Source: Candidatus Omnitrophota bacterium
GTDB lineage: Bacteria > Omnitrophota > Gorgyraeia > Duberdicusellales > 4484-171
DNA length: 64,000 bases
NCBI GenBank assembly: GCA_037146775.1
Contig: JBAWWL010000001.1
Location: forward strand, 5,464-69,463
Direction: 5' to 3'
This document shows positions 12,001 through 54,000 of the stretch, in pieces; position 1 is the stretch's first letter, and every line of letters begins with the position of its first letter. Under the pieces are notes generated by a model. The model was not told the origin of the DNA and searched no databases. It was given only the letters and a program-made list of their open reading frames with translations. The translations under genes and the position numbers were made by a program.

Positions 12001-15000
12001 TGGTTACGGCTTTAGAGTGGAGGATAAAGACCGAGGCTTCTAGGTTTTCCAGCAATTCTGTTGTTAGTGAGATAAGCGCAGATATTATCCCTAATATAGT
12101 TGACGCTGTAGTGGAAAGGCTCGATATAAAAGATATCACTAAAAATCAAGCAGTCGCTGGTTGTCGTTTAAGTATTAACCGCAAAGCCGGCGCTTTTTGT
12201 CTAGAGTTCTTTGATAATGGTGTAGGTATCCCCTATCAAATATTACAAAGTTGGCAGAGTCTTAGCCATGAGGATATTTCGCGTATGCTTTTAGCAGATA
12301 CGGTTTGTCCGTGGCTTACCACAAAAGCAGAGGAAAAACTTGGCCTTTATCTGGGAAGAAATGGCCAAGGCATGCTCAATGTTTTTAAAGTTTTAACAGC
12401 ATTTAAGCTTAGCATGACTATTACCTCAAAACAAAAAGATAAGCCGGCGTACCTTTTCAGGCAGTTTGAAGACGGCAGAAAAGAACTAACTGTCACTACT
12501 CAAGAAACCGTTGGAACCGCTATTATGTTTAACTCAGACAAGCGCCCGGAAATTATAGCTTTATTAAATTTTTATCAAGCGACATTAATGGATGAGCCTG
12601 CTGTATCTGTGGCTCGAGCAGCTCAAATTATGAGAGAGCCTTCGCCGGAGAGGCTGCGTAAGTTATTAAAAACTAATCCTGACGTAGCAAAGCAATATAA
12701 TATTCAGCCCGGAGCAAGAAAAGTAAAACCTGTTGAATTGGATGTCGGGGTATATTTAGTGCGAGATTATTATATGGGAAGGCCGGTTACAAGTATCGAA
12801 ACGCACATAGGCTCGGCTGCTGATTATGATGCTCCAAGTGATGAATCAGTGGCAAGATCTTGCCAATACACAAGAGGTTATTTACCTAGAGGTAAGATCA
12901 TGCAAGGCAAGCGTTGGTCAAGCGAAGATGCAGAAATATTAACTGTCTGGCTTGATAGAGCATATTTAAGAATAGCAAAACATGTGAGATTAGCGGAAAG
13001 TAGAAGCAAAAGCCACATACCCGTTCATCCCAATGATCTTTATCCGGAGATGCTGGTTTTAGACTATCGTCCGCTTGCTAATGGCAGGGTTGCGGCTGAT
13101 TTTGTATTTGCGATATCCGGCGGCAGGATAAGGTTATGGATTATGGATCCTAAACGTAATTGTGTGCAATCAATGGTTCATATGATTATTCAGGGAGCGA
13201 TCGATCCGGTTTCCTTCAGAACTCTTTTAGACGAATTAGAAAGCGAGCGTACACTTTCTGAAATTATTTCAGCGTCGTCAGTGGTGGAAGTGAATTTTGT
13301 CGAAACCCCCGAATTAGCAACATTGGCTAAAAGTAAGGATATTTTTAGTGCCTGGCTTGGTTTTTGGGCTGATTATTACCAAGTTCCCGGGCCTTTGAGC
13401 GTTTTATTGCGCAAGGGAGGATTAGTGATTAATAATCCGGGGAAACGTTATGAAAATCAAGTTTCGAGCTTGTCGTATGAAGTTTTGGGCACAATACTTT
13501 TAGTACATAACATGCGTACTTGGAAATATTACCACAGGCGTTTAATGGCGCTTGAGCACGTTATTTTAATCGCAAATCACGGTATAGAAAGGGTTATCTA
13601 TACCTCTTTGGAAAAGATAGAGCACGCTGCTTTTATCACCGGTATGAAAGAAGTCCTGGGTGTATATTCCCACCTTACTTGGACAAATCCGGAATTTGTG
13701 CTTGGCGGTGACGCCTATTCGTTAGTTGATCGGGGAGTCGTGGAATTGCTTTTCGGCGACCGCGATGCGGCTTATAAGTTTATCAGCAAGCAACCGTATA
13801 AATGGCCGGGAGCAGTTTCTTCTTCTGTTAATAATATTCGGTTGCGGCAGGATAAACAAAGAGCTACCTCTTCCGTGGCTGGTTGGGGTTCTTTGCCTGC
13901 TGCAGCCGAGCCAGAAGGCTCGTGGTTTGGCCTTGCCTTTAAGCCAAAGCCACACATATATATAGGTAAGAAGAATAAAGCTATTTCTTCTAGGGTTAGC
14001 TCTGCTGTTTCATCAACGCTGCCATTTTATTCTAGCGGCAGCATTTTTTCGGCTAACGATACTTATCCTATACCTATTTTTTCTTCACGCGATATTGAAG
14101 GCGACCGCGTCCACACACTACCTTTTGGAGAGATTTCCAATTCCCATTACCTACGAATAGCTATTGGCCCAAAAGTAATTTACATAGGTACACATCACCA
14201 CGGCGCATTTTTGTTTACTCTGCTTGCATATATTGAAGCGTTAATCGATGGAGGAGAGGATTTTGTACATATTGATTTTAGAAGGCACCCCGATAATTCC
14301 CCTGCAACCAATACACCATCATTAAACGATACTATTGCTAAGTACATAGGTTATTTTAAGCGTCAACAGAATGATTATTCTCTTAGGGAGGGTAATTATG
14401 TAACTGCTCTAAAACAGTTGTTTGCCGCTATGCGCTTTATATTTTTGTCCACTGAAATTGAACCAGATGCTGATTGGGGTGGTATGCGCTTTGACAAAAA
14501 AGATTCTGTTTTCACCTTTAGAGAAAGGTTGGTCAACGGCATAGCGAGTCTAGACCTAGATATATTTAATGATCGTTATAATCTGGAAACCACTCCAGAT
14601 ATGATAGCCTTGATGGATTGTTTAGTGGAAATAGTAAGTGAAGCTAAGGTGATAATGATTTTTTCTTCTCCGGGTTACCTAGAAAGAGATAGAGAGATGA
14701 TCATTCCAGAATTTTTAAACCGTTTATTAGCGAAATTGCAAAATAATCAAGATGCTAGAACAAATCACTCAGGCGCGCTACCCTATGTTTCGATTCCTTC
14801 AGCAAGAAAAGTAGTATTTCATAATGCTTATTTAAATGGCAGAAGGGTTCTTAATCCGAGAATGACTGTTAATGTCTTGCGGCAAGAGTTTATGGCTTCA
14901 TCCGTACTGTCTGGTAATATTTTCGGCTCTCTCAAAACCGCAATTCACGCCCCCCCTGCTATCGACTATGTACTACATACTATATACTGCCAAATCAGCT

Positions 15001-18000
15001 CTCCTCTTGCCACACCCAACCAAACTCCAAAAGTTAATTTTGTCCAAATGCGTCCGGGTACAGGCCAAAATATTGCTATGCGCTTAGGTGAATCTTTTGA
15101 GATTGAGTTAGTGATTCATGCTACCGATGGAGTAACTAAGGAAATGTTAGACGTGGGAATTCATACCGATATTGATACCAGAGAGTGGCATGACATTGTT
15201 TGCGCGCAAAGCGATATCAAGCCTGCCATAGGTATCGGTGGCGTGGCTGCTCCCGGCGTATGGTTTATCACTATGACTATCCAGCCAAAAGTATGCGGGC
15301 ATTATCAGTTTAACGGCTGGGCCCAAATAAAACAGGAATATAGCCAGACCGTAGAAAGAAAATGGCCCTTAGGAGGCAATGTCTATGTACAGGTGCATAA
15401 TATGCCGGAGTGGGTTGATTTACAAAAATTTCATCCGGTATATGTTTCGTTAACCGATATTGTGCAAGAAGATGATGGCCAAGGTGGGAAATTACCACTT
15501 AACTGGACGGGTCTTAGCGCTTATATGCTTAAAAAACAACGAGAGCTTGGCAAAAATGTATTCATGCTTTCTCCGTTCTTTCCTACGCCTGATGCAGGAG
15601 GTTTTGGCCCTTTAACCGTATTTGCGCTTAACCCTCGTTTTACTGATTGGCAGGCTGTCCCGGAGCAAGGTTTACGGCCGATAGATAAGTTCCGTAATTT
15701 CCAGACGCATGCGGTCAGCTTACGTAGAAAACAATTTAATAATTTAACCGGGACCAAACAACTAGCTGATTATGCGCATTTTATCGCCGAGCGTATATTT
15801 GGCGGCAATGTATCTCCGGTATACGGAGTAACATACGATAGTGCTGATTTTCTATCGCAAGCTGAAGCCGAGCAATTCATCTTATATGAGCAATTCGTCA
15901 ATTTCGAACAAGTTTATTGGTTATTAGAGAAGACCACCGCTTGCGGTATACGTATATTAGGAGATATCCCTTATTTTCGTAACTTAGACGGTCCGGACGT
16001 TTTATATAACCGGCAATATTTTCTTAGTGACAATGATATTTTGAATAGATGGATTGGTCACCAAGCTTTACGACAGTGTTTACTTAAGGATTTGGACGTA
16101 CCTGAGTTGGCAGAGTATGCACGCAGAGAATTACCTGAAATAGAATGGTTTATTGGGGAAGATTTTGCGCAATTACCCCCGCATATTCAGCAAAGAATTA
16201 GGGCTGACCACAGCGGTTTAATTTATATACCGCCCGATATCCCGGTTGATTGTGCTGGTTTTAAAAACGGGCACGTGCAGCGTTTTGGCAACCTGGCCAG
16301 TTGGAACGATCCGGCTATTGATAAGTTAGTTAATCACGGACAACAAGATCCGCGTTTAGCTGCTTTTCAATTCTGGGATACAGTTTTTCCGGCGTTATTT
16401 GGCACTAGTACCACCCGTTTGGCTGGTTGGCGATTAGACGGCTTACATTTTTATGGACGCAGTTCTTTCCGCCAGGGTGCAAAGAGAATTTTTGACAGTA
16501 CATTGCTTTGGGATAATATAGGGAAATTTTTCCAGGAACATAAATTATTAGCCATTGTTGAGCAGTTAGGAGCAGACCCATTGCCTTATTTTCATTTCAT
16601 GAAACTTGGATTTTTACAGTATGCGTTTATCCTAGATTTAAAGCCCAAAAGTCTTTCTGATTTATGTCAGGAGGTTGCCGGAATATCGCGCGGCATTGCC
16701 TTTACCGTGGTTGATACTCATGACAGCCAGCGTTGGGCGCTCGATTATTACCGTATGCTTGCTTATTTTGCTTATCTGGATAGCGGTGCCAACCAACCCG
16801 CCGTTTGCGATGATATTTTTGATTCACAGAAACGTTATGCACTAGCACCTCAAGTTATGGAAGATTTCCGTGTCGAGGCAGCAAAAGTTTTAGCACACGC
16901 CGGACTGGTATTCTTAGGACTTTTATCTTTAGGTCCGCGCATGGAAACAACCATGTTAAGTCTTGCTGAATTTGGCACACTTGATAGTATCAAACGCGAA
17001 TTTCTCGATAACGGCGTAGTGGTGGGTACAGCCTGGGGGACTGAAGTGAGAGGCCGCAATGATTTCTCTCCTTGGTTAAAACGCTTTGGGCAGATTCGTG
17101 AAGAAAACCCCGCTATCAGTCATGCTGACGCAATATTTATCGGCAACAACCACCAAGGTAGTGTGTATTCATTTGTAAAGTCTTATCAAGATAATCGTTT
17201 AGTTTGCGTAGCAAACCTAAGTGCTGCCTCGCGCGCAACCGAACTTTTATTGCCGGCTGCTCGCGAATTTAATATTTATGGAGCCAGTCGACTTGTTTTT
17301 AGAGATATTATCAGTGGAGACGTGGTAGACACCGACGGTTTTCATTTTTATTACACCTTGAAACCCGGGCAAGTTGCGGTATTTAAGTTAGAACACATTG
17401 AGACCAATCCTCATCATCTAACCCGCTTGCTTGATGTTGAGGCTGTGCCGGGTAACCACAGCATAAATTTTGATTGGGTAAATAGGCATCGGGAAATTCC
17501 GCTTCCCAGTTCAAGCCGGATGATTATTCGTAACCCCGCCCCATTTTTTGTTTCTCTTCGCGGTCTAGATAGGGGTGGCGAGCATATTTTTGAAGCTAGT
17601 TACGCTTCACAGGCACAGCGCCACGTCGCAGTCGTTACTGGCCTTATGCCTGGTAGATATGAAATGCGTTTTTGCTGGTCCTGTTTTGATCCTAACATGG
17701 CGGCTTACGAAAAATGGGAAAGCGAAACTTATTTTGTACGGGTCTTACCTGGCGCCGAGACAATGTTGGCAGAGCGTGAACCGGGTCAGGTGTCGCTACG
17801 CCTAACCGGCGAACAAATACGCAAACACTGGTATCCGCATAATTCAGTTACTTTGGGAAATAATTTAGGTAGCATGTTACGTATACCGCTCAGGCCATTA
17901 ATTCGTAATCGATATTCCGCAGAGGAGAAAGAAACTTGCGGCTATACTACAAAATATGACGGTTTTCAGGCAAATCTTTTATCCAGCGTTCCAGATCAGA

Positions 18001-21000
18001 GCCGCCGTGTTTTATACCGCGGAGTGGTAGAGGTTGTGCGCGTTACTTTTCCCAATGATGCTTATGTAGAATTTCCCCTTAGGCTAGAGCACTTAGAGTC
18101 TTTTGAATGTTATCCGGCGCCGCACTGGACCTTTAATTTTCACCATTGGTCATTTAATTCGGATACAAGAGTGGTGATTACTAAAACCGCACTCATAGAG
18201 GAAGACAGTAACGCTTTTGCTCTGCAGTATCGGCTAGAGGAGATAAGCCATGATGTAAGCAAGGTTGAATTATTCTTGCGTCCGGAAGTCGATCAGCGTG
18301 AACACCACGACACAACTAAGGGCGGTTTTGACTGGTGGAATTCGCGCCATCGCCTCATATCAAGAGATAACAGGTCTTACGGTTTTGCCATTGAGACCGT
18401 TAATGATGATTGGCGTACGTGGTATCCTGGTTTTGAAGGCTTTGCCATGACTATTACAAGCGGGGACTATAGCTTTGCGCCGGAATGGCGTTATGCTCAC
18501 AATCCTATAGAAGCAGAACGCGGCCAAGATGATTGGAGCGATAGCTATAGTCCGGGTTATTTCCATGCCACTCTCAACAATAGCCAACGTAGTACCTCAT
18601 TAACCTTTTTAAGTATTGATTGTCATTATATGTATATGCAACATAGCTCGCGCTGGTGTGAGCGTAGTAATCAATATGAGGCTACTATTAATGGTTTGGC
18701 GCCCGGAAGTTACGATATAGAATTTTATTGGCCGGCCGCCGGGAAAAAAGAGTCTTATCGCCTGGATGTTTTTCAAAGTAATGATGGCTCAATTAGGGAT
18801 TGGGACTGGGATCACAAAGAACACAATGCTGCGATGTCCTGCGCTGGCGGCTTACGGGTGAGGAATGGGCATATCTTTTTCTTACGCGCACTTAGGGCTG
18901 GTACGCAGGATCAGGTAAAGCCTTTTGCTATTGTGGGGGGATTGTCCGGATTGTTGAGTGATACTCGTCTGACCAACGAGGGCGATGTTGAAACTTTGCG
19001 TCAGGAAAGAGTACAATTACAAAATGCCCGGCTTGGCCGTATTCCCGAAGACATGCGTAAAGACCCCTTTGTGCAGTCAATGGCTTTAGCGCTTTGGCAA
19101 TTCGTTTGTCGCCGTGCGCATTTTTACACTATTATTGCTGGATATCCTTGGTTTGCGGATTGGGGTAGAGACACTTTCCGGTGTTTTGGCGCCCTTTTAG
19201 AGCTGGGTATGCATGATATTGCCGAAGGCCTGCTTGGCGCATTCGGCAATAAAGAAGACCGCGGCGGAATGCCTAATATTGTTACTGGAGATACTGCGGA
19301 GAATTACGATACAGTTGATGCTCCGCTGCTTTATGTTTTAGCAGTACGTGATTTAATCGCTAAGACAGATAATCCTGCTATCCTTGATCGTGATATCGGA
19401 GGAAGAACTATTTTTTCTGTGGTTGAGTCTATCGTCAGACATTTCCGGCAAGGCACGCCTCAAGGTGTACGCATGAATCAGGCAACTGGCTTAGTTTGGG
19501 CGCCGGCGCATTTTACTTTTATGGATACCAACTTTCCTGCTGCTACTCCGCGACAAGGTTTCTGCGGCGATATCAATGCTGATTGGCGTGAAGTTTTACT
19601 TTTTGTTTCCGGTCAATTGCGCCGTCGCGGCAGAATTCAAGAAGCAGAAGAATTAGAACGTTTAGCCCATCAGGTTACGCAAAGCTGTAACGAATTTTTC
19701 TTTGTGAATAATTTCGGCGGCTATTTGGCGGATCATATTCATACCGATAATCCTGATGTGCATCCTCGTGATGGCGTAGTCTGTCAAACCGTTAGGCCGA
19801 ACATGATGAGGATGATGCTAGCCAAGGATTTGATTACTAAAGAACGCCAGCAGCAGGCAGTACGCGTGGCAGAGGATAAGCTGGTTTGTCCGGCAGGCAT
19901 GCGCAGTCGCTCTGAAGAGCGTTTAGCCAGCGATTGGGAGAGGCAAAGCAATCAGACGCAAAGCGTTTTAATCTCGGTTGCCGAGCCGCACTTTGGTTAT
20001 GTTCCTTTTTATGAAGGAGTCGAAAATGACAGTTACCAGCAGCCCAATAGAAAGCTTGGTTATCATAACGGCACTGTTTGGTCACATGTTTTTGCCGACT
20101 GGGCGCTTGCCTATTGCGAAGCATACGATTGGTCGCGTCAGGCCATTGAACACGTACTGCCGTATTTTCATACTTTCTTTGAACATTTAAGCGAGGCTGG
20201 AATCGGCAGTATTTCTGAGGTACTTGACGGCCATTGCGGAGATACGCTTGGCCGGCATTGGCCGCGCGGCTGTTCCGATCAAGCCTGGGGGGTTGCTTGT
20301 GTAGCTGAGGCCTATATAAAAATAATGCGTGTCTACCGCACGATACTGGCGAGAGAAAAAGCCAATACCCCAAGTCAAACATCATCTAGCTCTGTTAATT
20401 CTGATTGGTATCGCCGTAACGAAATAAGAGCATTAGTGCCGCAGGCAAGTTCTGTGGTTAACATATTGTCGTTAGCGCTAAAACCAGAGCCGGCGTTAAA
20501 GAACAGTACAATACATTATTATTTTCAAGTATCCTCACCCCTAGAAGGCAAAAAACACTTGCTCAAATCTAGATTAAGTAGCCAGGAACGCCGTTGTCGG
20601 GATTTGATTATCAAAGCATTAAGATTTAGAAAAATGCCTATAGATAATGCTTTGCAGCAATCTATTCCCAGTGCGTTGGGGGCAGTAAGGGAAATTGCTC
20701 CTCCTAATACTTCAACAAAAATTTTAGGAGCAAAAGTTGATCGCGTTGTACTTGGTTTTGTACGTGATTTCGCGCTCAACCTTATCAACCAGGGTATTTA
20801 TCCTTGCTCAAGCTTGCAGTATGGGATACCTTTGCTTGTGCGCATACAGAGGCTATCCAATAGAAGTAAGGATATCTGTTGTTTGCACCTGATCTTAAAT
20901 GAACTGGAGCGGATCGTAAGAGATCTCGGCAAGCGTTTTATTAATCCCCATCGTACGCTTATTGCCGCAAGGGGGTTGGTTGATAAAGTAGAGTGGGATA

Positions 21001-27000: not shown

Positions 27001-30000
27001 TAAGGCAACTGCTAATTCATCAATTAGGTAATATTTTTGGCGCAGTTAATATTTATGACTTGGATATTGATGAGATTCGTGGGCTTTTCTATGAATCAGG
27101 CAGGGCGATTAACCCTAATACGGATAATATTTTTGATACTATAGCTCAGTTGCGGAAAGTGCGTGTCAGGCAAGAAGTCACGCATGGCAGCCTAGAGCGT
27201 TATCTTTGGCTTACCGGTTCCGATTCGATAACCGATGGCATGTGCGATGAATGTGCTAGAGCCCTACGAGATGCAGAACAACGGCATATTAGTGTTTCAG
27301 TTGAAGGTAGACATGTTATAGATTGCGGAAGTATAAACCAATATTATGGTGTGGTTGATAATATGCACGGCCGCATAGTTATAGATTTTGCGCTTGGGCC
27401 CTATGATCTTAAAAAATATGAAAAGCAGGTGGTAATTTTATCATTGGCTGAGTATCAAGATTTATTGGCAAAACTTTTTGCGCAACAAGTTGAAACTATT
27501 TTTAGCGCGGAAAAAATAGAATTAATACACAAGCTTGAGCATCAATTTTGGGCAGAACGTTTCGCGTTACTTTCACAAATTGCCAGCCAATCCAGTCCGC
27601 TGACCATTCATAGAGGCTCTTCAGCTATCCCGGCAGATATGGCTACAAAACCAGAAATAGTTTTGCCTACTACCCCTCGAGAATGGTATGAATGTTTTTA
27701 TCAAGTTTATCGGGCTTTATCTTGCCGCAACAGTCCTGAAGAAAATACAAGGCTTTTGGGGTGGACTTTTGAAAATTTAGAAAGGCTGGAAAATGATCAG
27801 GGTGAGCGTTTTGGCCGGCGCGAAAGCCATCTAAGACTATTAGCTCCTAGAATTGAAGCATTGCCTGGTTGGGGCAGGATGTTACGCGTTATACGAGAAA
27901 GTAACCCTGTGGCCCGCCGCAATTTAGCAATGTTTGAGAAGGACTATTTAACTATTTCGATCAATGTTCAGCTGGAGGCTGAATCTAGGACTATTGAATC
28001 AAAACAGGCAGCATTTGTAAAACTTGCTGAAACCGCAAGAAAAGAAAAAGCAAGAAAAGAAGAAAAGAATCGTAAAAGAGACGCTGGAAGAGGCATGACT
28101 CAAGACGAACTGCGCATAGCAGCCCGTAAGCGGGAAAAAGGACGTATCTCCAAAGAAAAAGCCAGGCCAGAAAAGAGGCAAAGAAAAGCTTCTGTTGAGG
28201 TGATTGAACCAGCGCAAAACCTGCCTGTATCCGTAGCAGTAACGGCAGATAGCGAGGTTTTAGCTACTCTTGATCCTATCGTTGTTCCGGGCGATACCCA
28301 GAGCGATACTGCGACAGAATCTGTCGTTACAGCTCAACCAGTAGTCCAAGCTACTATGCAAGTCCAGGCTCTTCCAGGAGAATTAGTCAAGCTTATAGCA
28401 ACACGCCGCGCCAAAGGTTTAACCTTCAATAGTTTTAGCCGTAAGTATGGTATTAGTTTACCTTACGTCTGGATAGTTGAGCATCGTTTAATCGTTGAAG
28501 ATTGGCTAGCTAGGCTTGACCAGCCTGAAGATGGCGCTGTTATGCTTGAGATAATAGAGCAATCACCTGCAATATTGATGTTTTGCGCAATTATGAATAC
28601 ATCTTTTGTAAATGAAAAACTTCTTGGATTAGGATTAGCTGAGAATGTGCCGTTTCCTTTATCTTTGCAAGGTAGTGATAAATCGGTTATCCAAGAAAAT
28701 TTAAGAAGAGCATTGGGAGTCTTGGCTGCGGTCGAAGCGGTTCATACACGAAATAATTCAGCCTTAGAAGAGTATTTTACAGTAACAGCAAATCAGCAAC
28801 GCTTGGCTGTTGTAGGTCAGCTACAGGCAGTAATGCGGGTTAATCTTACCCGGTTACGTTACCTTGGGGTGCGTAGCGGAACCTATCAACGTATTTCACA
28901 GGATGTACTTAGCCAGGAAACAGGTTTGCATCAGCAGACCATCCTTTATCTTGAACGCGGCAGAGATAATAGCCCTCTTTCGATGGAGCCGCTTATTAAA
29001 ATTATTCAAGCTTTAGCTTGTAATGAAAAGTTTGATTTTCCTATACCAGAAATTTCCGCAGTAGGTGAAAATGAGCATGCAGAAAAATGGGAAAGAGAAC
29101 AAGCGATATTGAATGCTTTATGCGACTGGCAGGAATTAGACAGATTATACCGCCTGCAAATGGCCGTAAAAGTTACCTCCGAGGCTCTTCTTTTATTAAG
29201 TCAAGATGGAGATGCTTCTGCAGATGAAGATTTTAATCACAAGCTTGATATTGCTTTAACGGATACTGCTGAGGGGGTCTCTTACGTTAATAAAGCAGAA
29301 ACATTAGTTCCTGCCAAGGGAGAACTTCCTGCCTTTGAAGGCTTGTTTGCTATTTCTTTTGGTCTAGCTGTGCGTCTCGCCAGAGAATTAGGTACTAACC
29401 TAGAAAGGTCTACAGACAGTGTTGCGGGTCAAAAGAAGCGCAAGCTTTTAGCGGTTAAAGATATAAGTACTGCAATCAGGCGGCCTGATTCATATATACT
29501 TTGTATTGAGCGTAATGACTCTGAAGAAGGTAAACTGATTATTTTTTATGTTGACGCAATTATCGCTTATTTTGCTTCTAAAGATATAGTTTTGTATGAA
29601 GCTGGCACAGGAGTTAACAAAGATTACGCATCAGTAGTAAAAATGCTATTTAATATTAGGGTGATTGATCGCACGCGTATACTTATCGCAGCGGTTCAGT
29701 CAGCCAATGGTGCAGATCCGGAATTCATCGCTAGCGAATCGTCTTTGGCTGATTTAGTTTCTAAAGGAGTATATGAAGGCAATAACGAAAGGCGTTTTAA
29801 CGGCGAGGCCTTGCGCCGGCTAGGCTTAAATCTAAAGGTTCTTACCCAAACTACACCCATTGAAGGAAAGCCTTATACTTTGGAACGGATGGCCGAGGCG
29901 CTGCATATTTCTAAGCGGCAACTCTTTCGAATAGTAAATGCCGAAGCGCCCATGCCTTATGCGGCATTTTATAGTATGGTAGTAAGCTTAGCCCAACTTT

Positions 30001-36000: not shown

Positions 36001-39000
36001 TTACAACCTATATGCCGAGCGGCCCTCCTTTGACCATAGTAATGACCACTAGCCTTTCTGTTGTAGACCACACCCGTACCGCTCATTTTCTTGATGCCGC
36101 CTTAGCAGAGATTGATCCCGGAAGGAGAACGATTGCTCTGCACCACTCATTCTTTGATTTTCCTATTATCTTCCAGGCTGATATCTTACGTATTCGTTTT
36201 GGATATTTAAACGGTTTATCGGAACCAGAAGTATATCAGGATAGCCTCGCTCATTTTGGAACATACCGAAAACCAGACGCGCAAGAAAAAGACGAATTAA
36301 CTCAATTTTTAGAAGAAGCCGAAAGTATGGGTTTTGCATTGCCCGTTCTTTATCGGGAGGCGCTTAGACAATTACAGCGGCTTCATTTTAGTGAGCTTGA
36401 CCGTCATCTTTTTATTGGTGAAGGAAATCATTTCCAGGCTTATGAGAAGCTTGGCGCTCACCTTATCGCTGCAAACGAGAGAAATCTCGGTACTTATGTT
36501 GCGGTGTGGGCGCCGCACGCCCAGTTAGTTTCTGTTATAGGTGATTTTAATAATTGGGGTAGTGTGTATGCGCATCAGCTATCCAACCATTTAGGAATTT
36601 GGCACGGGTTTATCCCGGTTTTAAATAAGGATAGGCGCTATAAATATCGAATTTTAGGTCGAGACGGTATAGTGCGTGATAAGGCCGATCCCTACGCATT
36701 CTTCAATGAGCATCCCAGCCAGGGGCACGAAAATTCTACTGCATCGCTCGTTTGGGATCTGCACTACCAATGGAATGACCAGGAATGGATGAAACAGCGG
36801 GCTTCAAAACAGGCATTAGATAAACCTATTGCTATTTATGAAGTTCATCTGGGTTCATGGAAGCGTAGCGCGCATAATTGGCCGCTGGATTATCGAGAAT
36901 TTGCCCGGCAGTTGGCGGAATACGTGAAAGAGAATGGTTTTACCCATGTCGAGTTACTACCCATAACCGAGCATACTTTCGAAGGCTCTTGGGGTTATCA
37001 GGTAGGCAATTACTTTGCTCCGACCTCACGCTTTGGCACGCCTCAGGATTTAATGTATTTGGTTGATTATTTACACCAGCAAGGTATTGGGGTTATCCTT
37101 GATTTTGTGCCCGCACATTTTCCCAAAGACGCTCATGGTTTGAGCCGTTTTGACGGAACAGAAATCTATGGTCATCTTGACCCTGCCCAGGGAGAACACC
37201 CTCACTGGGGAACCTATATATTTAATTACGGCCGGCATGAAGTACAAAGTTTTCTTATCAGTTGCGCTTTATTCTGGCTCGAAAAATATCACATTGATGG
37301 TCTGCGTTTTGACGCGGTCGCCTCGATGCTTTATCTTGATTACGGTAGAGAGGGGAGACCTTGGGTACCAAATAAGTATGGCGGAAGAGAAAATCTTGAA
37401 GCAATTGAGCTATTAAAGAAAGTAAATACCATAGCTCACGCTCAAAAGCCGGGAGTTTTAACTATTGCCGAAGAATCAACCGCTTGGCCCGCAGTATCGC
37501 ACCCGGTGCATTCAGGTGGGCTAGGCTTTTCTCTGAAGTGGAATATGGGCTGGATGCACGATACGCTGAAATATTTAGCAAGAGATCCTATCTACCGGAG
37601 CCATCATTTTGGGGAGTTAACTTTTATTTTTGAGTATGCTTTCTCTGAAAATTTTGTATTGGCTTTGTCTCATGATGAGGTTGTACACCTGAAGCGCTCG
37701 TTATTAGAAAAGATGCCAGGCGACCAATGGCAAAAATTCGCTAATCTTAGGCTTCTTTATGCCATACTGTATGGTTTTCCCGGCAAAAAATTAATCTTTA
37801 TGGGAGGAGAATTTGGGCAAGCTAGCGAATGGAACCACGATACGAGTTTAGGGTGGGGTCTTTTAAATCTGCCTTTACATAGCGGGTTACAGAAATTATT
37901 TTGTGACCTCAACAGGCTTTATCGCGGTGAACCTTGTTTGTATGAGCTTGATTTTAATCCGCAAGGCGCACAAGTAGTTCACTTTGATAGTACAAACACT
38001 GTTCTTGGTGTCGTTCGTAGAGGCATAAATTCCAACGAAAAGCTAATATGGGTTTATAACTTTACTCCAGTGGTTCGCCATGGCTATCGTATAGGCGTGT
38101 CTTGGCCAGGAAAATGGGAAGAGGTGTTGAATAGTGATGCTAAAATTTACGGTGGCTCAGGGGTTGGTAATTTAGGTGGTTTATATGCCGAAAACATTGC
38201 TTTTGGCGGTAAGCCTCATTCTATACAAATAGTACTTCCGCCATTGGGGGCAGTGGTACTTAAGGGTAAGCGTAACCAGGCGTCTTCAGCAGTAGAAAAT
38301 ACAGTTAGTTTCGCTCGTTCCCGCCTACGCCAAAGCTTCGGTGGGCAGGCAGGACGTCAATGTGATAGCGTCTCAAGCCCCGGGAGAATGTTAAATGTTG
38401 GCGGAAAACAATTTCAAGTTACTCCCAAGTTAATAGCTGATCTCACTTGGCAGTCAGGGCATAACAATCTTATTGCAATCAAGCCCGCTGGGGATTTTAT
38501 TTTAAATCACCTTAGGGCTTGGTCAAATTTATTTATACTGCCTAATAATTGTCTGCCCATGAAAGGTATTTTAAGAGGTGTTAATATCGGCTGTGGCGAT
38601 TCTCAATTTTCAAGGATAATTGATCAGACTTTCCCCATCGTAGAAGAATTTATTGATGTTGATTTGGCAGAATTTCCTTATGGTAATTGTCGGTACAGCC
38701 ATTCTGTAGTAGCTGATGCTGAGAATCTCCCTCGAGACATGTTTCCCGACTCTTCCTATGATTTTACTATTCGTTCTTTTGTTTCAAATTATTTAGAGAG
38801 TCAGGAGCGAGGCGTACGTGAAGCATTAAGAATTCTACATCCGAATGGCCGTGCCTTTGAGATATTACACCATCAACAATCAGGCTATTTCCATGCAGAG
38901 CGTGTATATCAAGAGCAAGCTCAAGATCAATGGCCTTATCTTCGTACGGTTGATGATGTAATAAAAATTCTTTATTGGCTGAGAGAAATTTATTGGGCAT

Positions 39001-42000
39001 ATAATGAGCATAGGCTTGATGTTTTGGATATCGAAAAAATGAGTCCTGACTTACGCCAAAGATTAATTAACCCCGGAGTTATAGAACAATGTTTAAATGT
39101 TGTCCAAAGGCAGGAAGCGTATGTAAAGAGCGGCGCACATTATGCTGTTTCCATGAGCTATACCGCTATGAGAGAGCTGCTACAATTTCTTCTTCTGTGG
39201 CAAAGCAAGAACAAAGTGTTTAAAGATAAAGATGAACTTGAAGCTTTCTTTGAATCTTTGGGCTTTAAGATTGTGGTGCGTGCCGAGGTAATTCAAGATA
39301 TCGAGGTAAAAATCCCCAGCATCAGAGATATTTTAGTTGGAAATAGCCAAGTTATTAAAACCGTTATTGACCCTTGTGTCGCCTTTGGTATTGTGCTTGA
39401 AAAACCGGAAGACATTTATGGATTTCCAGAAATGTCTCGAGGCATGGATAACTCGGGTTTTCAAAGTTCAAGTGCGGTTGTTAATACAGAATTAGAATTG
39501 GTCAACCAGGAAGTATTGGCGGCAAGAGCCTCGATGAACGGGCTTTTTGGTATGCGGTTTGATAATGATACTTTAATGGAGTCTTTGATAATGCATTCTG
39601 GAGCTATTAACCAAGCAGATCATGCTATGGTTGCTCTTAAGTTATTTAAGAACTGTGATGGTACGCCGTTTCTTTTAAACGGCCATTTCTATATAACTGT
39701 TCCCGTTAACAATATAACAACAGTACGGCAACTTACCGCAGAGGAATTATTGCAAATGGGTCTTACGCCGGTATTTGGTGGAGATGGTCAGCAAGTGCAC
39801 GTATTGGCAAAACAACCGTTTATTCCGCTCAATCCTTTCAGACATAGCCGGAATTATTACATAGAAAATATCTATACAACTACAGTGATATCAAAATATG
39901 GAGAACATACCCATACTTATTTTGGCTGGCTAAATGAAGATGAGCTATCTGAGCGTCTTTGGCTAAATAGTTTGCAAGAATATACGATATTGTATGGCGA
40001 TTGTTTAAATTGCAAAGGCGCTGGGGTAATGAATTTGGGCAATGGCTTTGCTCGCACTACAACACATACCTACCATTCTAGACAAGAATTTGAAGAAGCT
40101 TTATCGGCTGCCGTTATCGATCTTTATACCACGGATGTAATTCAATATGAAGATGCCATAATGGCCCTAGAAGAAATTGCCGGGTTCTCTCATGGGATAG
40201 CCAAAGATTTAATTGACTGTTTCTGTCGTGGCGAAAATACGATCGGTTATTTACGTTCTATCGTGGATGTAGCGCGTAACGAGGCGGTAGTTATGAACGT
40301 TTTTAGCAGCAAGGACATTACTGTCAGTATTCGCAGAACAAAAGCGTGCGAGTTCCAGATAGTTAGAAGTATAAATATTCAAGGTTTGCAAGATTGTTCC
40401 GGAGTATTATTGGACATAGAGCATCAAGCTTGGGCATTGCATATGCCAAGGGGTTTAGCTGGCACCAGTGATGGATTCCGTAACCAACCGCGTATTTTAG
40501 CCGGTGGGACGCGAATTAATTCTTTGAATATTCTTTCTTCAAGGTTGCAACCAACAAATTTATGCCCTTATAGTACGTTAGGCCAGGTTTGGAGAGTGCA
40601 GCTTGGCGTTCTGGGTAGGACCTATCCTATAAGCGCTTTTCGTAATACGTCCGATGGCCGTTATAAAAATATGATACCCATACCAACACACTTAAAAGAG
40701 CGAGAACACGCTTTTAATTTTGCTTATAATAACGGCCATAATTTGCGAGTGTGTTTGCTTATTGGTTTAGTCGAATCGGATTATTCTCTTTCCAGGGAAA
40801 AAGATTTGCCCGAAGACGGCACCGCTACCGATTTTGATGAAAAAGTCGATATAGGTGAATGGTATTTGCGCAGTAATGAAAATGAGTTTCCTGGGTATCG
40901 TGATGAAGAGCTTGGTCGTTTAGTTGAAGTGCGAGCTACTTTAGTTACTATCAACACATTATTTCAGATGTTTCATCGTGATATACACCAGGGTAATATT
41001 CCGCTTTTAGGTTTAATGAGCGAAGATGGTCTTAATGATAGATTATTCCAACAGTTTTTATACGGCCTTTTTATGGATAACCAAGCCGTTATGCATGAGG
41101 TTATAGAGGCCATAAGACAGCGCCGGACAAATTTAATGGCTGTAAGCCGCGCCATAAATTTTATGCCGGATATCGAAATAGCTAAGATAATTCTTGCGCA
41201 CTGGAATATATTCCGGCAAAACAAAAGCTTTGAAGATTTGCGCGGAACTCCTGTTGAGAATAACCGCGCACAGTTACTTAGAGACAATCTTGTTTTTATT
41301 GTAAGCAAACAACACGATACAGCAAGACAGGTTTTAGTTGCCATAGAAAGCGCTGATTTTGTAAAGGCAGAAGCTTTGCTTAGATCTATCAGCCAGCATA
41401 CCTTGCTTATTCCTTTCATTTCTTTGGTTATGGAGTATTCACGAGTGCATACAGGGCGGATGGTTTTACCTGCTGCCCGTGCAGTCAGTGTTCTTTTTAT
41501 TCGTGTCATAGCAGCTTTAGATGATCACCAGCCGCAGTTAGCACATCAAATTTTTGGTAATAATGTAGCTTTTATGCACGCAGCAAGAATTTATCATGAT
41601 GCAATAGCGCATTTTTCCCGCGGTCGCCTGCGGGCTGCCTGGTGGAACGTGCATGAACTAAGATATCTGAAAGATAGTCAAGCCAAAACAACGTCACTAC
41701 TTTCTTACGGTATTAAGGTATTAATAAGGGAATTAGAAAATAAACTAAGCAATATAAGCTCATCGTCTTTAGGGGAAACACTAATTCACACCAGTTATTC
41801 TATTCAGCCCAGGTTAGTCGATTTGTTTGGCGTAAAATCTATACGTTCGGTTTTTGATTTTGCCGCCGGCGATGGTAGCTGGAAACGCAAATTGATTCAT
41901 AATCCGCCACTCTGGTTGGCTGATGAAGCCAATATTATTCCTTGTGAACAAGAAACGCCGAAAGATTGCGGTTTTGGGCCCAAAGTGAATCCGGAAGTTG

Positions 42001-45000
42001 ACTGGTTAGGCCTAGATATGATTCGTGATAAGCAATTATATCCGTCGCCAGAAAGTATAGATTTATTTCATCAAGCGTTTGATCCTTTAAGCGTGGTAAA
42101 TTTATATAGGCACAAGCTTGAACGCTTAGTTAAGCCCGATGGTTGGTTTCTATTTGCAAATCGTAGTGGCTGCACTCATCTATGGTCTTATGAGCAGTGG
42201 CTTCGAGAAAGAGAATACCCTTATTTAATATATTACCAGCGTGCGCCCCCGGTTGATTACCCTCTTACTACCTGGTGGTATGCAGCAATACAGGATTATG
42301 GATTATATACCATCAATGGCGTTAACTATGTTATTGTTGCCAGAAAACAATCAGGGGGTACACTTACTTTCTCTCAAACTCAAGATTTCCGCGTTTCATC
42401 ATCCATACAATCATCAAAATTAAAAGTATTAATACTATGTTCTGCCAACGAGAATCGTTCGCAGGTACTCGCGGTATTCTTGCGCCAGCAGCTGGAACGG
42501 GATGGATTAGGTCATAGTGTGGAGGTTGTCGCACGTGGCACTTCTGCAGCAATAGAATATAGAAGCGAACTTGGTATTCCGGCAGAAAAAAGTGCAGAAA
42601 CAGCCAGAGTATTAATTTTAGGGCGAGTTTCCTCTGAGCACCTAGAGCGCATAAACGTACCGCAAAGAGTTTCTTTAGAAGAATTAGAGGAAGCCGAGAT
42701 TATTGTCTGTGTTGATCAGGCGAATGTGAGCGTCGAGCTATTTGGCTTGTTGCGAGAAGAGCATCTTGAGCCTACCAGCGCTATCTGGCAAGATATCGCG
42801 AAAAAGATTATATATACCGATCTTCCTGACCCATCCCTGGCCACTTTAATGGCTAAGAATGCTCATATGGCCGTGTTTAATAGGGCAATTTTTTATCAGC
42901 TCATGAAAAAAGCCAGGAGTCTTATTACGGGAGTACTTATTTTAACTATACAGCAAAGATTAAGTGGCAAATATTTATTAAAGTGCAGTTCTTCTGCTAT
43001 TAGTCTATCTGATTTAGATTTAAGCCGGAAAGAATTCATTACAAGGGGTAGGTACGGCCTGCTTTTTAAGGTCCCGCTTGTAGATGGTACTCAAGCGGCG
43101 GTATTAAAAATATATTACCTGAGGAGTTTATCGCCGGAGCGTTTCGTGCCGCTATGTCAGCATTTACTTTCGCTTTCGCAAAAACTTCCTACTCTAACAC
43201 AGCAAGGATATATTCCAACATATCATTGCAGCGGTTTTTGTTCGGTGTGCGGACAAATAGATAATCCAGCTAATTGGAATTTGACCCTTTACGGCCAAGA
43301 TGTCCCTCAAAGATCAAATCACCATTTATGTTGTTTTATAGTTATGGATTATGTGCCGGGTAAGGATTTTAGTCATTTCTTGCGCGAAGGCTATGCTTAT
43401 AGAAGTACGGTTGAACTTCGTAAATTAAAAAATCTTCTTACTTTTACGCTTGCGATTGCTAAAACCATTCAATTATGCCACAAAAAAGGACTTATTATCC
43501 GCGATATAAAACCTTCTAATATTATGGTTGATATTAGTGAAAGGTTACATATACGTACTAACCTTGCTGATCTTGAAGGCGCATTTGTTTTACCCTTGTC
43601 ACCCGTAGACCGCTTAGTATATGAAATGTGTACACCGCTTTATGCTGAAAGTCTTGCCCCCTTTAGTCAGGACGCATCCGGCCATATTACTCCTGAGGCC
43701 TTAGACTTAGGTAAAAGATTTTTTGACAGGCAATGGGATATTTATGCTTTTGGCATGGTATTAGCCCAAATAATTTTTACAGGTTTAGATATGGATGCTG
43801 TGCAAAAACAAGAACTATTAGGTTTATTCTCTCATGAATATCATTCCGCAGATGACTTAGATAGTTTGAGGTTACAGTTAAAAAGAGCAATTATTTTAAA
43901 GCTTAGAGAAATCGCTGGCGTGACTATTCAGTCCCCAGAAAATACGTTACGAAGAGTACTTAGCGAATTAGCCTTGGATTGCCTTAAGCCCAGAGCTGGC
44001 CGGCCGTCGGAAATGGAAATAGTTGTCGAGCGCTTAAGGGAAATTTCTACTTATATCCAGCCTCGGGTTTCCTCGGCAATACTTAGCAATGTTGGGATGA
44101 CTAATAGTATCGTTCAATTTCCCGGTCTGGGCTTATGGGGCACATGGAATTATCGCCGGACTTCTAACGCAAAAAGAGCAACTTTAAGAATACATCAAGG
44201 TTTTCAAGATTGTGGCGATGTTACATTCACGCTTGAAAATGGCGGTATTGTTCTTTATTCCTGCAATGATTTGAATGTGAGAGTCACTAGTCGTGGCTAT
44301 GGTACGATTCTTTTAATAAATGGCCTTATATTAGCTGAACAAGAGGCGCGCCGGAAGCAGCTGTCGGTGCGCTGGGCGTTGGTTTATTATACTCGCGAGA
44401 ATGATGACAAGATGGAGGACGAGCGTATTGCAGCATTAGAAAGATTCTTAGAGAAATTATGTTTTGATAGTATTCAGCAAGCAATCATAAAGGATGCGCG
44501 TCTGAAGAGGCTTTTGGCAAAATACCCGCACACAAAAGCAGCGGGAGAATTTGGACAATGGTTTATTTCTTTAGAATTTTTGGCCTTATTACACCGCGAG
44601 TTGTTAGCTAGGTATACCTTTAATTTAAACAATAGCGATACTGTTTCTTCGAGTATTCCTCTTAATTATATAGCCAGACATGGTGTTGCTTCATCTCCTT
44701 CCCGTGGCAGGGATGATAGGCGAAAAAGAAGAGATCACAGCATAAAACAAAAGCGCTCAGCTCTCGGTTTAGCTATGTCTAGCAGCCGTGATGTAATGCA
44801 ACCCTTAGAAACCGGTACGCCTGTGTGGTATGACCAGTATTTTCCGCTTAAGCATGAATTAAAAGAGAAAATTATTAGGATTGTACAATGGAGAGAAAAG
44901 CCTGACTTTGCCCGGGGTCGTTCCGGATATATACGCTTCACTCAACCGCTCGTGTATGTATTAACTACACCCAGAGGAGAAAAGAGTTTTGCGATTTATG

Positions 45001-51000: not shown

Positions 51001-54000
51001 ATGAGGCTGTGATATTTAATATTGGCTGCGGAAGAAATATATTGCCTAACCTTGGCAATCGTATAGTAACTAATTACGATGCTCTTTTCTGTGAACATGA
51101 TGCAGTATCCTGGTCTGCTCAAGAAAGAGCGCAACAAATAGGAGCTTTACTGCGCATAGAAGAAATAACTAAGATAACCGATAAATGTTCATTAGCCTTA
51201 TGGTGGGATTTACCGCATTATATTTGTAAACAAGCGCATAGGGCTTCAATTTGGGCTGATACCCAAGGCGAGCTGGTAGCACGTAGAAGACAGGTTCTTT
51301 CCACTTGTTTAGAGCATGCTTGGTCTATTATTAATCCAGCAGGATTCTTTATGATTGCCGGCACATATTGGAATCGGCATACCCCAGCCCATCTTTACAG
51401 ACGGATAGCAAGCTTGGCTTTCAATATATCAAACATGCATGTTATCGGAGCAGAACTGGACAAATATGCTAAGGCCATAATCCTACAAAAAGCAAGCTCA
51501 GCGCTTAAAAATACAATTACTCTCAGAGATTTAGATCTTAAACGTCAGGAACTTATTGAAAGGGGGGGGTTTGCTGCTGTATATAAGGTGCCAAGTAAAT
51601 ATGAAGACAAAACATATGCGGTAAAAGTATACTGTTTTGAAAATAAAGACGATCCGGAAGTAAGAAAACAATTAAGCAGGCTCGTTCGTTATGTGGCTGG
51701 TTTCAGGGTGCGTTATCCGGTATTAAAGGAGCTAGGGGTTATACCTTCATATTATGATTGGGGTTGGTGTTCTCTGGATGAAGAAGATGGGCTTATGAAC
51801 CCGCATTTTTGGCGCAGGGACTACCCTTATATAATCATGAATTTTATCCAAGGTGCAACATTACAATGTTTATTTGAGATAGAGCGTTGGGTATTGGAGA
51901 ATGACTGGACGCATAAGCTAAAAGTTGCCTTGGGCGTAGCCCGTTTAGTTTCGCAATGTCACAGCCAGGGTTTGATCATAAAAGATCTTAAACCATCCAA
52001 TATTAAAATATTCTGCGACACCAGCGCCCAAGAGCGTTTTAGTTTGGTGGACATGGATGCTGCAGTTCCTCAAAACTACAACTGGTTTAAATGGTCGTGG
52101 CTTATAGCCAAACGCGAACGTGTTCCGGAGTGGACGCGTAATATCCGTACTGATAGCTATTGCGAAGACTTGAGGCCATTTGTCGAAACCGATTCAAGAT
52201 TTTCGCGTCGCCAGGCGGCTAGAGCCGCAACGGAGCTATTTACTCCACAGTGGGATATATATAGTTTTGGCCTTATTTTGGCGGAAACGCTAAATCCTTT
52301 GGCTATGCTTGAGTATATAAAAGGAGGAAATCAGCAGTTAATTTCACGAAATGTTATGGCAGAAATCGAGCAAGCCATTGCGCTCGCGCGAGCTAGCGCA
52401 GAACTATTAGCTGAAGTTAAGGAAATAACTCATAGAGTAGCCAAGGGTTGTTTGCTTCCTCGTACGCTCGGCCGTTATCAGGATATGGCTAGTGTTATCA
52501 GAGATTTAGAAAGAGCACAAGCGTTGTTGTCCCAAGCTTCTTCATCCTTGGTGGATGGTAGAGATATTGTAGTTACGATGCCTCCGATAATTGTTCCGGA
52601 TGTAAGTCCAAAGATAGGGCGAATCAATGGCATGCCTTTTAATACTTTAACTCATGATTTGACATTGCAGTTATTTCCGCTTGAGCTGATTTTAAAATAT
52701 AAACCGCAATGGCGCGATCATTTGAAAGTTCATGTTGAAAGATTACACCGGCCGCTTCTTGAAGAGCATCATGCCCAAATATATAAAAGGTTGTTTAGGC
52801 GTGTATTTCGTATTGATATCAGTGTAAATAATTTTACACAACCAGATAGCCGATTTATTACATTTAGTCTTAGGCGCACTGTATATTCGCAATTAATACC
52901 AGAAACAGAAGTGGCTTATCTTTCATTGCTGCAAGAAAAAGATTTTATGGTTTTTAGGATGTTTTTAGCGCCGGCACTCCAAAGAGGAGAAGAAATCCAA
53001 GGTATTGGGAGTGCTTGGTATGCTGAAATCATAGAACCATATTTTATGAGTTTAGGCGCAAAGCACATTGGTACTTATTGGAGTTGTCTTAACGCTAACA
53101 AGGCTTGTCAGGCTTTCTTTGTGGGAAGAGATTTTTCTATAGAGGACGACGTATTAAGCTTAAAAGGAGTTGCCCTTTTCTATTATTATGCGGCGACTAA
53201 AAGTTTAAAAGATTCTCTAATAATTATTGAGAGAGTTTCTTCTTCTGTTTCAAGTCAGGAAAATGTTGTCAATTTTGAACAGATGCAGCAGTATTTACGC
53301 GCTTCAAGAGTAAAGATTGGTATAGTGGTTCCGGTTGCAGAAAGTAAAACAGTACTTAGCGCGGTTAGCCAGCTACGCGAAGATCTTGGAGGAAATATTG
53401 AAATTATTCTGACTGGAGACAGCAATAGAATTTTAGCAAAATTGCCACCCGCATTACAAGGTATAGCTGCCATTGAGCATATCGCTTACCCTGTGATGGA
53501 TAGCGCTTTAAGCGAAGAAACTTCGCAAAAAGCAATCTTAACTTATCAAGTTCAGTGTATCAAGAAAGGCCTGGAATATGTTAAAGCTGGTCTTGCCCAG
53601 ATTATCCTTAAGGGCGATGTGCCTACCGATGTATTGATGCCTGAAGTTTTTTCTTCTGCCAATGGCTTAAGAACTCCTGGTCAAATCATCACCCATTTAC
53701 GCGAATTCGAAAGAAAAGATGTTGAGGGTATATTTAGTATGAGCGATGGCGGCATAAATACTGTTCCTGATGCTGCAACCAGAGGGCAAATTGAATCCAA
53801 TACAAAAAAAGTTTTAGGTTATTTTGGTAATACCGAACCCGCAATATGTATTTTAAGCCACGCCGGCACATTCCCCACTATAGAAAAAATATTCCGGGCT
53901 AAGGCGATAATCTGTCCGGATATAGATTCGGCGAATATAATTTATAAGGCTTGCGCTTTAGGCCTCCCTTGGGAGCTAATACATCGCGCAACTACTTGGT

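Follow-up and report, generated by a model that had tools for sequence, protein, structure and literature searches.

A highly divergent low-molecular-weight phosphatase-like module beside a Hanks-type kinase in a giant multi-enzyme protein of an Omnitrophota bacterium

Layout of the locus

We analysed a stretch of 64,000 nucleotides (nt) from a Candidatus Omnitrophota bacterium (contig JBAWWL010000001.1, positions 5,464 to 69,463 of the forward strand), which as a whole is called the window. It is filled by a giant stop-free reading frame that contains, back to back, a module resembling protein tyrosine phosphatases of low molecular weight (LMW-PTPs) and a Hanks-type kinase (kinase module 2). 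An earlier note on this DNA had taken the two for an intramolecular writer/eraser pair. We find this partly supported: the observation is real, in that a very divergent module of the LMW-PTP family adjoins a Hanks kinase in a giant multi-enzyme protein, and it was partly over-stated.

Open stretches of at least 300 codons occur in no other frame of the window. The guanine-cytosine (GC) content by codon position (GC1 0.52, GC2 0.40, GC3 0.34) stays even along the whole window, nt 42420-43900 included, which argues that the giant frame is real coding sequence and gives no sign of a recent insertion. The phosphatase-like module does lie directly N-terminal to the kinase in one reading frame (Table 1), and the two are closer than had been supposed. 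The last helix of the phosphatase-like module ends at about amino acid (aa) 14316, leaving about 12 aa to a conserved N-terminal extension of the kinase and about 28 aa to its glycine-rich loop (Gly-loop), not a linker of about 60 aa. Furthermore, the kinase runs to about nt 44063 and not, as the earlier note had it, to nt 43900.

Table 1. Features of the window. Residues are numbered in the giant frame and converted by nt = 3+(aa-1)*3; for example, the first serines of the junction peptides around the two modules lie at nt 42396, 42990 and 44070.
Feature	Position (nt)	Residues (aa)	Strand	Basis or remark
Giant stop-free frame	3-63998		+	21,332 codons; runs off both window ends; contains phosphatase-like and kinase modules
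Junction peptide RVSSSI	42390-42407	14130-14135	+	directly upstream of phosphatase-like module
LMW-PTP-like module	42408-42983	14136-14327	+	Pfam, hhalign, own profile, AlphaFold 2 and Foldseek
LMWPc match		14142-14242	+	Pfam
P-loop CSANENRS	42438-42461		+	CX5R(S); predicted nucleophile Cys14146 (TGT, nt 42438-42440)
CVDQAN	42708-42725		+	fits b3 motif C/A-M-D-x-x-N; bovine CMDESN
Candidate general-acid DP	42828-42833	14276-14277	+	DPSL: Ser-Leu next, no aromatics (not DPYY or DPF)
Junction peptide CSSSAI	42984-43001	14328-14333	+	between phosphatase-like module and kinase module 2
Kinase module 2, Hanks-type	43002-44063	14334-14687	+	Pfam Pkinase (PF00069) 43.7-45.3 bits, cut-off 31.7
beta3 'VAIK' lysine (AVLKIY)	43107-43109	14369	+	invariant in three paralogues
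Catalytic loop IIRDIKPSN	43494-43520		+	Arg14500-Asp14501, Lys14503, Asn14506; RD kinase, Ser/Thr-type D-x-K-x-x-N
DFG-equivalent ADLEG	43566-43580		+	Asp14523 kept, invariant in three paralogues; Phe and Gly replaced
Junction peptide RVSSAI	44064-44081	14688-14693	+	closes kinase module 2
Kinase module 1	8247-9272	2749-3090	+	paralogue; no phosphatase-like neighbour
Catalytic loop VKELKPEN of kinase 1	8763-8786			Glu replaces catalytic Asp
Kinase module 3	51483-52553	17161-17517	+	paralogue; no phosphatase-like neighbour; preceded by two methyltransferase-like repeats
Tandem duplication of ~215 aa	50202-51509	16734-17169	+	copies 50% identical
GT4/GT1 glycosyltransferase		44-352	+	Pfam
ELFV dehydrogenase			+	Pfam; listed between GT4/GT1 and kinase 1
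GH77-like + GDE_N/GDE_C	15756-20306	5252-6768	+	Pfam; GDE_C 188 bits
HTH_3 (Cro/C1-type helix-turn-helix)	28893-29024	9631-9674	+	Pfam 29.1 bits, above cut-off
ADH_N, then GDSL lipase			+	Pfam; listed after HTH_3, before GlgB
GlgB, complete	36420-38282	12149-12754	+	Pfam
Methyltransf_11			+	Pfam; listed between GlgB and LMWPc
PTA_PTB, Methyltransf_23, HATPase_c			+	Pfam; listed after kinase 3
Junction sites 1-15 (first Ser)		393, 1744, 2713, 2744, 3093, 3120, 4606, 4666, 6795, 8952, 9206, 10474, 10548, 10916, 12761
Junction sites 16-30 (first Ser)		13156, 13920, 14132, 14330, 14690, 14882, 15731, 16052, 16946, 17165, 17513, 17746, 18224, 19252, 21195
Complete frames of at least 150 aa	19837-20385; 40973-41509		-	two only; antisense, probably spurious

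Homology and catalytic residues of the phosphatase-like module

Several profile methods connect the module with the LMW-PTPs. Searched as an isolated segment of 200 aa, it matches Pfam LMWPc (PF01451) with 25.5 bits against a cut-off of 23.2 (E 1.7e-5), and no other family appears at E<=1. This profile had been named as a check by the earlier note; the match holds for the isolated segment and falls below the cut-off in larger pieces, with 22.1, 19.9 and 17.3 bits on pieces of 470, 1200 and 5000 aa, and only positions 1-89 of the 144 profile positions are aligned. A hidden Markov model (HMM) of our own, built from 14 diverse LMW-PTPs, also gives 25.5 bits and matches this one segment alone in the megaprotein. 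Comparison by hhalign with the five LMWPc domains of the protein MFI5349297.1 yields 93.5% probability (E 2.3e-7) over aa 14139-14243, which includes the b3 motif, and the same protein is the single match of an exhaustive phmmer search of 1.84e9 representative proteins. On the other hand, NCBIfam gave no match for the module, and a direct sequence search of the PDB with it gave insignificant matches only. Word-indexed searches for homologues, made with the phosphatase-like module and with the phosphatase and kinase together, found no relative, and neither did GTDB genomes, JGI metagenomes, IMG/VR or plasmids for the module or for the pair.

Structure prediction, likewise proposed as a check, came out on the side of the LMW-PTP fold. 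The order of elements predicted by AlphaFold 2 (AF2) is strand b1 (LKVLILC), the P-loop, helix a1, b2 (VEVVARG), an enlarged variable region, b3 (IIVC), a4, b4 (IIY), DLPDP and a C-terminal helix. The model from the single sequence is poor (predicted local distance difference test, pLDDT, 51.5); it shows the expected b-a-b order, and LMW-PTPs head a Foldseek list that is not significant. Guided by a multiple sequence alignment, AF2 reached a pLDDT of 65 and a predicted template modelling score (pTM) of 0.61, and the top 47 Foldseek matches in the PDB are all chains of the LMW-PTP family. The best E is 1.8e-6, template modelling (TM) scores normalised by the target are mostly 0.5-0.69, and the leaders are the bacterial TT1001 and YfkJ, not the vertebrate proteins of the alignment. 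That alignment consisted of vertebrate ACP1 sequences only, which is all that a homology search seeded with an alignment including bovine ACP1 returned, and its low diversity limited the prediction. Since an alignment of LMW-PTPs steers the model, we take the Foldseek result as consistency and not as proof. A combined alignment of phosphatase and kinase for AF2 was dropped, as MAFFT spread the C-termini of ACP1 across the kinase.

Could the module be an unrelated alpha/beta domain with a chance CX5R(S)? The bare pattern CX5R[ST] does occur at a chance rate in the giant protein (3 observed, 2.1 expected), the Pfam score is marginal and the single-sequence model has no significant fold match. 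However, it is the context of the motif that is significant: the profile matches span about 100 residues, the only match in 1.84e9 proteins is itself an LMWPc protein, no rival Pfam family appears at E<=1, and LMW-PTPs are the top structural neighbours in both models. This explanation is largely refuted and, to our minds, barely credible. Homology to the LMW-PTP superfamily (class II cysteine phosphatases) is thus very probable, as the earlier note had claimed, with the addition that the domain is highly divergent.

Other families were considered and rejected. For PTS-IIB, RpiB and Sua5 there is no Pfam match at E<=1, and the loop has an arginine. Structures of ArsC, the thioredoxin-coupled arsenate reductase, match weakly and over the N-terminal part only. 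The redox pair of Staphylococcus aureus ArsC is Cys82/Cys89; here such a pair is missing, since Cys14236 (in CVDQAN) is the only other cysteine and none follows seven residues on.

The P-loop CSANENRS comes directly after the hydrophobic strand b1 (LKVLIL). It is in frame and intact, with its cysteine where the earlier note had placed it and the arginine present. Cys14146, Asn14149 (position 4), Arg14152 and Ser14153 are residues that are invariant in the LMW-PTP alignment, whereas Ala replaces the usual Gly at position 3, Asn stands in place of Cys at position 6, and Glu occupies position 5, which is usually Ile and in arginine phosphatases Thr. In addition, the conserved His of the hydrogen-bond network of the P-loop is aligned with Asn. 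We know of no precedent for Glu at position 5. Further downstream, IIVCVDQAN fits ILxMDxxN (bovine ILCMDESN), and CVDQANVS is where the Pfam, hhalign and own HMM alignments all end.

Beyond this point the likeness to LMW-PTPs fades. With hmmalign the final 77 residues of the module stay unaligned, and a C-terminal LMW-PTP profile gives the tail of 77-87 aa -1.7 bits, where shuffled sequences average -1.1 and reach 0.9 at the 95th percentile. The earlier note had reported a correctly spaced DP general-acid motif. A DP does exist, and its linear distance from the Asn of CVDQAN is 35 residues (34 in the bovine enzyme, 31 in YwlE); its role as general acid is unproven, because the C-terminal third scores no better than shuffled sequence. 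The chance probability of a DP in such a tail is about 13%. One MAFFT alignment places it on the catalytic DP, whereas in the other it falls on SYDP of vertebrate ACP1, which is not catalytic, and Lys14288 takes the position of the catalytic Asp. The predicted strand b4 (KIIYT) ends 3-4 residues before the DP, and from its opening Lys to the Asp we count about 8 residues, as against about 17 in YwlE and bovine LMW-PTP. The mean pLDDT of the alignment-guided model is 48-50 over aa 14277-14296, and values are below 50 over aa 14279-14291, just past the DP.

These observations bear on the idea of a pseudophosphatase, a dead or scaffold domain that has kept the P-loop and lost a functional D-loop. 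It would account for a C-terminal third that is not recognisably LMW-PTP, for the short distance between b4 and the DP, for the replacements of His by Asn, Gly3 by Ala and Ile5 by Glu, and for the low model confidence past the DP. We nevertheless consider it unlikely: although the sequence otherwise evolves fast, the P-loop has kept its Cys, Asn, Arg and Ser, the DP lies at a near-canonical linear distance from CVDQAN, and LMW-PTPs that had been labelled as pseudophosphatases from sequence alone later proved active (PMC7772506). Judged from the sequence, the chances that the module is catalytically active are roughly even.

If it is active, the backbone amides of CSANENRS together with Arg14152 would bind a phosphate monoester, and the thiolate of Cys14146 would attack to give a phospho-cysteine intermediate. 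An acid, possibly Asp14276, would protonate the leaving group, and water would then free the phosphate. As for the substrate, LMW-PTPs have been characterised as phosphotyrosine (pTyr) or phosphoarginine (pArg) phosphatases; position 5 of the P-loop determines which of the two is used (Ile in most LMW-PTPs, Thr in arginine phosphatases), and aromatic residues of the D-loop bind the substrate (PMC7772506). A pTyr substrate should therefore not be assumed here, given Glu5, the lack of aromatics past the DP and the enlarged variable loop.

One may think instead of an active cysteine phosphatase for another substrate, be it pArg, as in YwlE, or a small phosphorylated metabolite tied to the neighbouring metabolic modules. 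The LMWPc domains of the only relative are indeed closest to the YwlE arginine phosphatases (104 bits to 4PIC), position 5 is neither Ile nor Thr, and there is no aromatic pair past the DP. However, Pfam scans of the giant frame, which were made in pieces of 5000, 1000 and 470 aa, showed no McsB-type arginine kinase in the window, and the arsenate reductase option lacks the Cys82/Cys89 pair. As the proposal is read off residue identities alone and Glu at position 5 is without known precedent, we regard it as improbable. If the module is active, its unusual P-loop, with Glu at the specificity position, could extend the set of substrates known for the LMW-PTP fold.

Kinase modules, junction peptides and the relation of the two neighbours

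Kinase module 2 finds PERK, ULK2 and StkP in a phmmer search of the PDB. Besides the residues in Table 1 it has TPLYAE (P+1), QWDIYAFG and the subdomain XI Arg; most of these are invariant across the paralogues, and so is the Asn of the catalytic loop. Its Gly-loop (RGRYG) and its DFG motif (DLE) are degenerate. DIKPSN and TPLYAE (D-x-K-x-x-N and T-P-x-Y) are signatures of Ser/Thr kinases, and the activation segment holds Tyr, Ser and Thr. Kinases of the RD type are typically controlled by phosphorylation of the activation loop, and kinase 2 is the only one of the three that is of this type. A scan of metagenomes with the kinase profile returned generic Hanks kinases only, at 22-42% identity.

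Kinases 1 and 3 are 30% identical to each other and 26-27% identical to kinase 2. There is one phosphatase-like segment for three kinase paralogues, so that two of the three are without a phosphatase neighbour. Directly upstream of kinase 3 lies the tandem duplication of about 215 aa, whose copies each carry a glycine-rich motif like that of S-adenosylmethionine methyltransferases (NIGSGRN and NIGCGRN), although Pfam assigns no family. The roughly 210 aa that precede the phosphatase-like module (aa 13920-14132) end like these repeats (...VNYVIVARKQ).

The modules of the giant protein are delimited by a short serine-rich peptide. In the 21,332 aa the pattern SS[SA][LIV] occurs 30 times, compared with 3.8 +/- 1.8 in residue shuffles and 8.8 +/- 3.0 under a first-order Markov model. 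The stricter forms [VAI]SS[SA][LIV] (21 copies, 2.0 expected) and R[VAI]SS[SA][LIV] (7 copies, 0.13 expected) are enriched more than 10-fold, the basic pattern 3- to 8-fold. Its usual form is (R/Q)(V/A)SS(S/A)(L/I/V), often followed by x-N-T. It is the peptide that is conserved and not the DNA, because serine codons vary among the copies. The copies sit at domain edges. They are found just past GT1, on either side of every kinase and at the close of each 215-aa repeat, and also 7 aa past GlgB, 27 aa past GDE_C and 21, 41 and 61 aa ahead of PTA_PTB, ADH_N and HATPase_c, respectively. At the N-terminal edge of the kinases the SS pair does not vary among the three. Segments between copies are of enzyme size: the one around the alcohol dehydrogenase (ADH) measures 368 aa, those of the kinases 348-360 aa and that of the phosphatase-like module 198 aa. 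The phosphatase-like module and kinase 2 are delimited like every other module and therefore look like two independent beads, not like a dedicated two-domain unit. The peptide might serve as a phospho-acceptor linker, as a site of polyprotein processing or just as a linker that is favoured here. Should it be cleaved, the premise that the two modules act within one molecule fails. The peptide may matter more than the domain pair, as it offers a handle on whether such giants are processed polyproteins.

With a modest lean, we favour the view that the giant multi-enzyme protein, at least 21,332 aa long, carries the phosphatase-like module and kinase 2 as neighbours with separate boundaries and only a loose relation to each other. 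The first would be a divergent LMW-PTP of about 190 aa and the second a Hanks-type RD kinase of about 355 aa with Ser/Thr-type signatures, one of three scattered paralogues; both would be signalling or regulatory beads among modules for glycogen metabolism, methyltransferases and other enzymes. The sequence shows the homology of the domains, their intact motifs, their adjacency and the edges of the modules; activity, substrates and any coupling of the phosphatase-like module with kinase 2 are inferred. If the two are coupled at all, the precedent is a Hanks kinase that regulates an LMW-PTP or acts in parallel with it, and not a phosphatase that removes its neighbour's marks; PknA phosphorylates PtpA of Mycobacterium tuberculosis on Thr45 (PMC12832872).

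Several points weigh against this view. The LMWPc match is marginal and under the Pfam cut-off in larger pieces, the single-sequence model gives no significant fold match, and the better model was steered by an alignment of LMW-PTPs only. There are no homologues, hence no sign that the catalytic residues are under selection. As regards independence of the two modules, two domains side by side in one polypeptide classically suggest a functional coupling, and since tyrosine is phosphorylated by some bacterial Hanks kinases, a Ser/Thr signature does not exclude pTyr.

The last two points concern the writer/eraser pair, in which the phosphatase would remove the marks that the adjacent kinase sets on its own activation loop or on other modules, as a built-in phospho-regulation. 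The domains are contiguous (12-28 aa apart), kinase 2 is the sole RD type and offers Tyr, Ser and Thr in its activation segment, and apart from the phosphatase-like module no phosphatase domain was detected in the 21,332 aa. However, the chemistry is mismatched, as a kinase of the Ser/Thr type adjoins a phosphatase fold of the pTyr/pArg type, unless the kinase has dual specificity. The signatures DIKPSN and TPLYAE stand against LMW-PTPs that act on pTyr and pArg (PMC7772506). Kinases 1 and 3 do without a phosphatase partner, LMWPc was found in none of 80 unrelated metagenomic Hanks-kinase loci (fetched flanks of up to 10 kb on each side), the general acid and the substrate pocket of the phosphatase are not established, and the searches found no relatives of the pair. 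The analogy with Wzc/Wzb, from which the earlier note had argued, fails because no tyrosine kinase of the bacterial type (BY-kinase) is present, and the pair modelled on it is not supported. Since dual-specificity Hanks kinases exist, a writer/eraser relation keeps a small probability, and we rate it as distinctly unlikely.

A wider version would be control of the whole megaenzyme in cis: the three kinases might phosphorylate the conserved Ser-rich junction peptides between about 30 modules, and the atypical cysteine phosphatase, whose P-loop has Glu and which lacks aromatics for binding pTyr, might have evolved to reverse these marks. We hold this to be very improbable; if true, it would steer the docking of modules or their proteolytic release, a regulatory logic undescribed for any bacterial protein. 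More generally, activity of both modules would mean that a chain of glycogen enzymes has a cysteine phosphatase and Hanks kinases built into it, which would hint at a post-translational control of the megaproteins' own.

Domain content of the giant protein and comparison with known systems

Long stretches that are dark to Pfam separate the recognised domains of the giant frame. The earlier note had placed the pair inside a protein with polysaccharide enzymes; sugar enzymes are indeed present, but in the Pfam scans all of them are of the glycogen/alpha-glucan type and none belongs to capsule or exopolysaccharide machinery. Together they make up a glycogen toolkit in one chain: the GH77-like, GDE_N and GDE_C domains resemble a debranching enzyme of the eukaryotic style in one unit of 2,129 aa, and the full GlgB module shares 52-59% identity with free-standing GlgB from many phyla, being far better conserved than the signalling modules. 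The HTH_3 domain stands in the middle of the megaprotein, distant from all other recognisable domains. Chunked self-BLAST revealed further internal paralogous segments with 24-36% identity (aa 838-1212/1016-1384, 1531-1708/4710-4892 and 11915-11980/12763-12828). Neither a Wzc-like BY-kinase nor PP2C or FHA was detected by Pfam in the 21,332 aa. HEAT/TPR, NUDIX, SecA_DEAD and C39 were not seen in the window, which covers only part of the ORF (open reading frame), and six weak hydrophobic peaks leave almost no transmembrane-like segments in it.

Compared with known LMW-PTPs (PF01451; TT1001 2CWD, YfkJ 4ETM, YwlE 4KK3 and bovine ACP1 1PNT), the module likewise has b1 followed by C-X5-R-S, Asn at position 4 and C-x-D-x-x-N at b3, and is predicted to share the alpha/beta topology of four strands and a long helix at the C-terminus (best structural matches with TM 0.59-0.69). 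It differs from them in length (about 190 aa compared with 150-160), in an identity of only 13-22%, in an enlarged variable (W-loop) region without Trp and in a C-terminal third that cannot be aligned. Furthermore, LMW-PTPs are free-standing, whereas the module forms part of a protein longer than 21,000 aa.

The sole sequence relative, MFI5349297.1 from a metagenome-assembled genome of Elusimicrobiota (41 bits, 35% identity over the P-loop region), combines a PEP-utilizer domain, PPDK_N and five tandem LMWPc domains. Like the module, it has variant P-loops without a second Cys (CSFNTSRS, CAANHSRS) and fuses LMWPc to a phosphotransfer enzyme. On the other hand, its domains are clearly YwlE-like, and the partner is of the phosphoenolpyruvate (PEP)/pyruvate dikinase type, not a Hanks kinase. 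Gly stands for the catalytic Cys in one of its LMWPc domains, and in most of them ENP or DKP replaces DP. This protein is an unusual fusion of phosphotransfer enzyme and phosphatase itself, with a 3,117-aa member of the same cluster in ENA.

In Wzc/Wzb and in PtkA/PtpA of M. tuberculosis, too, a phosphatase of the LMW-PTP family is linked to a kinase near polysaccharide enzymes. In those systems, however, the kinase is a BY-kinase with Walker motifs (PtkA is like the haloacid dehalogenases), it writes pTyr, and the genes are separate; here we see a Hanks-type kinase with Ser/Thr signatures and sugar enzymes for glycogen. With the Hanks-type Ser/Thr kinases that are paired with PP2C phosphatases (PknB/PstP), kinase 2 shares the core of eukaryotic-type protein kinases, namely Lys, the RD loop, the metal-binding Asp, TPxY, the subdomain IX Asp and the XI Arg, whereas it differs in its degenerate Gly-loop and DFG, in the lack of a PP2C in the window and in the fusion of kinase and phosphatase. 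PknA/PtpA provides a precedent for a coupling of Hanks kinase and LMW-PTP other than erasure (PMC12832872). The searchable literature gave no description of a fusion of LMWPc with a Hanks kinase; domain-architecture databases were not queried.

Giant proteins of Omnitrophota have been described in two preprints. West-Roberts et al. (2023, bioRxiv 10.1101/2023.11.21.568195) describe 'Archaeovorins' in which HATPase_c occurs along with glycosyl hydrolases, glycosyltransferases and methyltransferases, and the 'multi-enzyme metabolic clusters' comprise clusters of sugar metabolism and kinases, with highly divergent domains and sequences that are mostly unique (80% singletons; bioRxiv 10.64898/2026.06.07.730766). 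In the searched parts of both there is no mention of LMWPc or Pkinase, nor of the junction peptide. SecA, C39, HEAT and transmembrane features, which these parts list for the giants, are absent from the window, itself only part of the ORF. What the window shares with the giants as described there is an ORF of more than 10,000 aa tiled by enzyme domains, a content of glycosyltransferases/glycogen-type enzymes, methyltransferases, HATPase_c and kinases, highly divergent domains, Pfam-dark stretches and a near-unique sequence; none of the collections searched held the window's sequence itself or a close relative of it. On present evidence, the locus adds a further divergent domain pair to a class of giant proteins that the preprints have already described.

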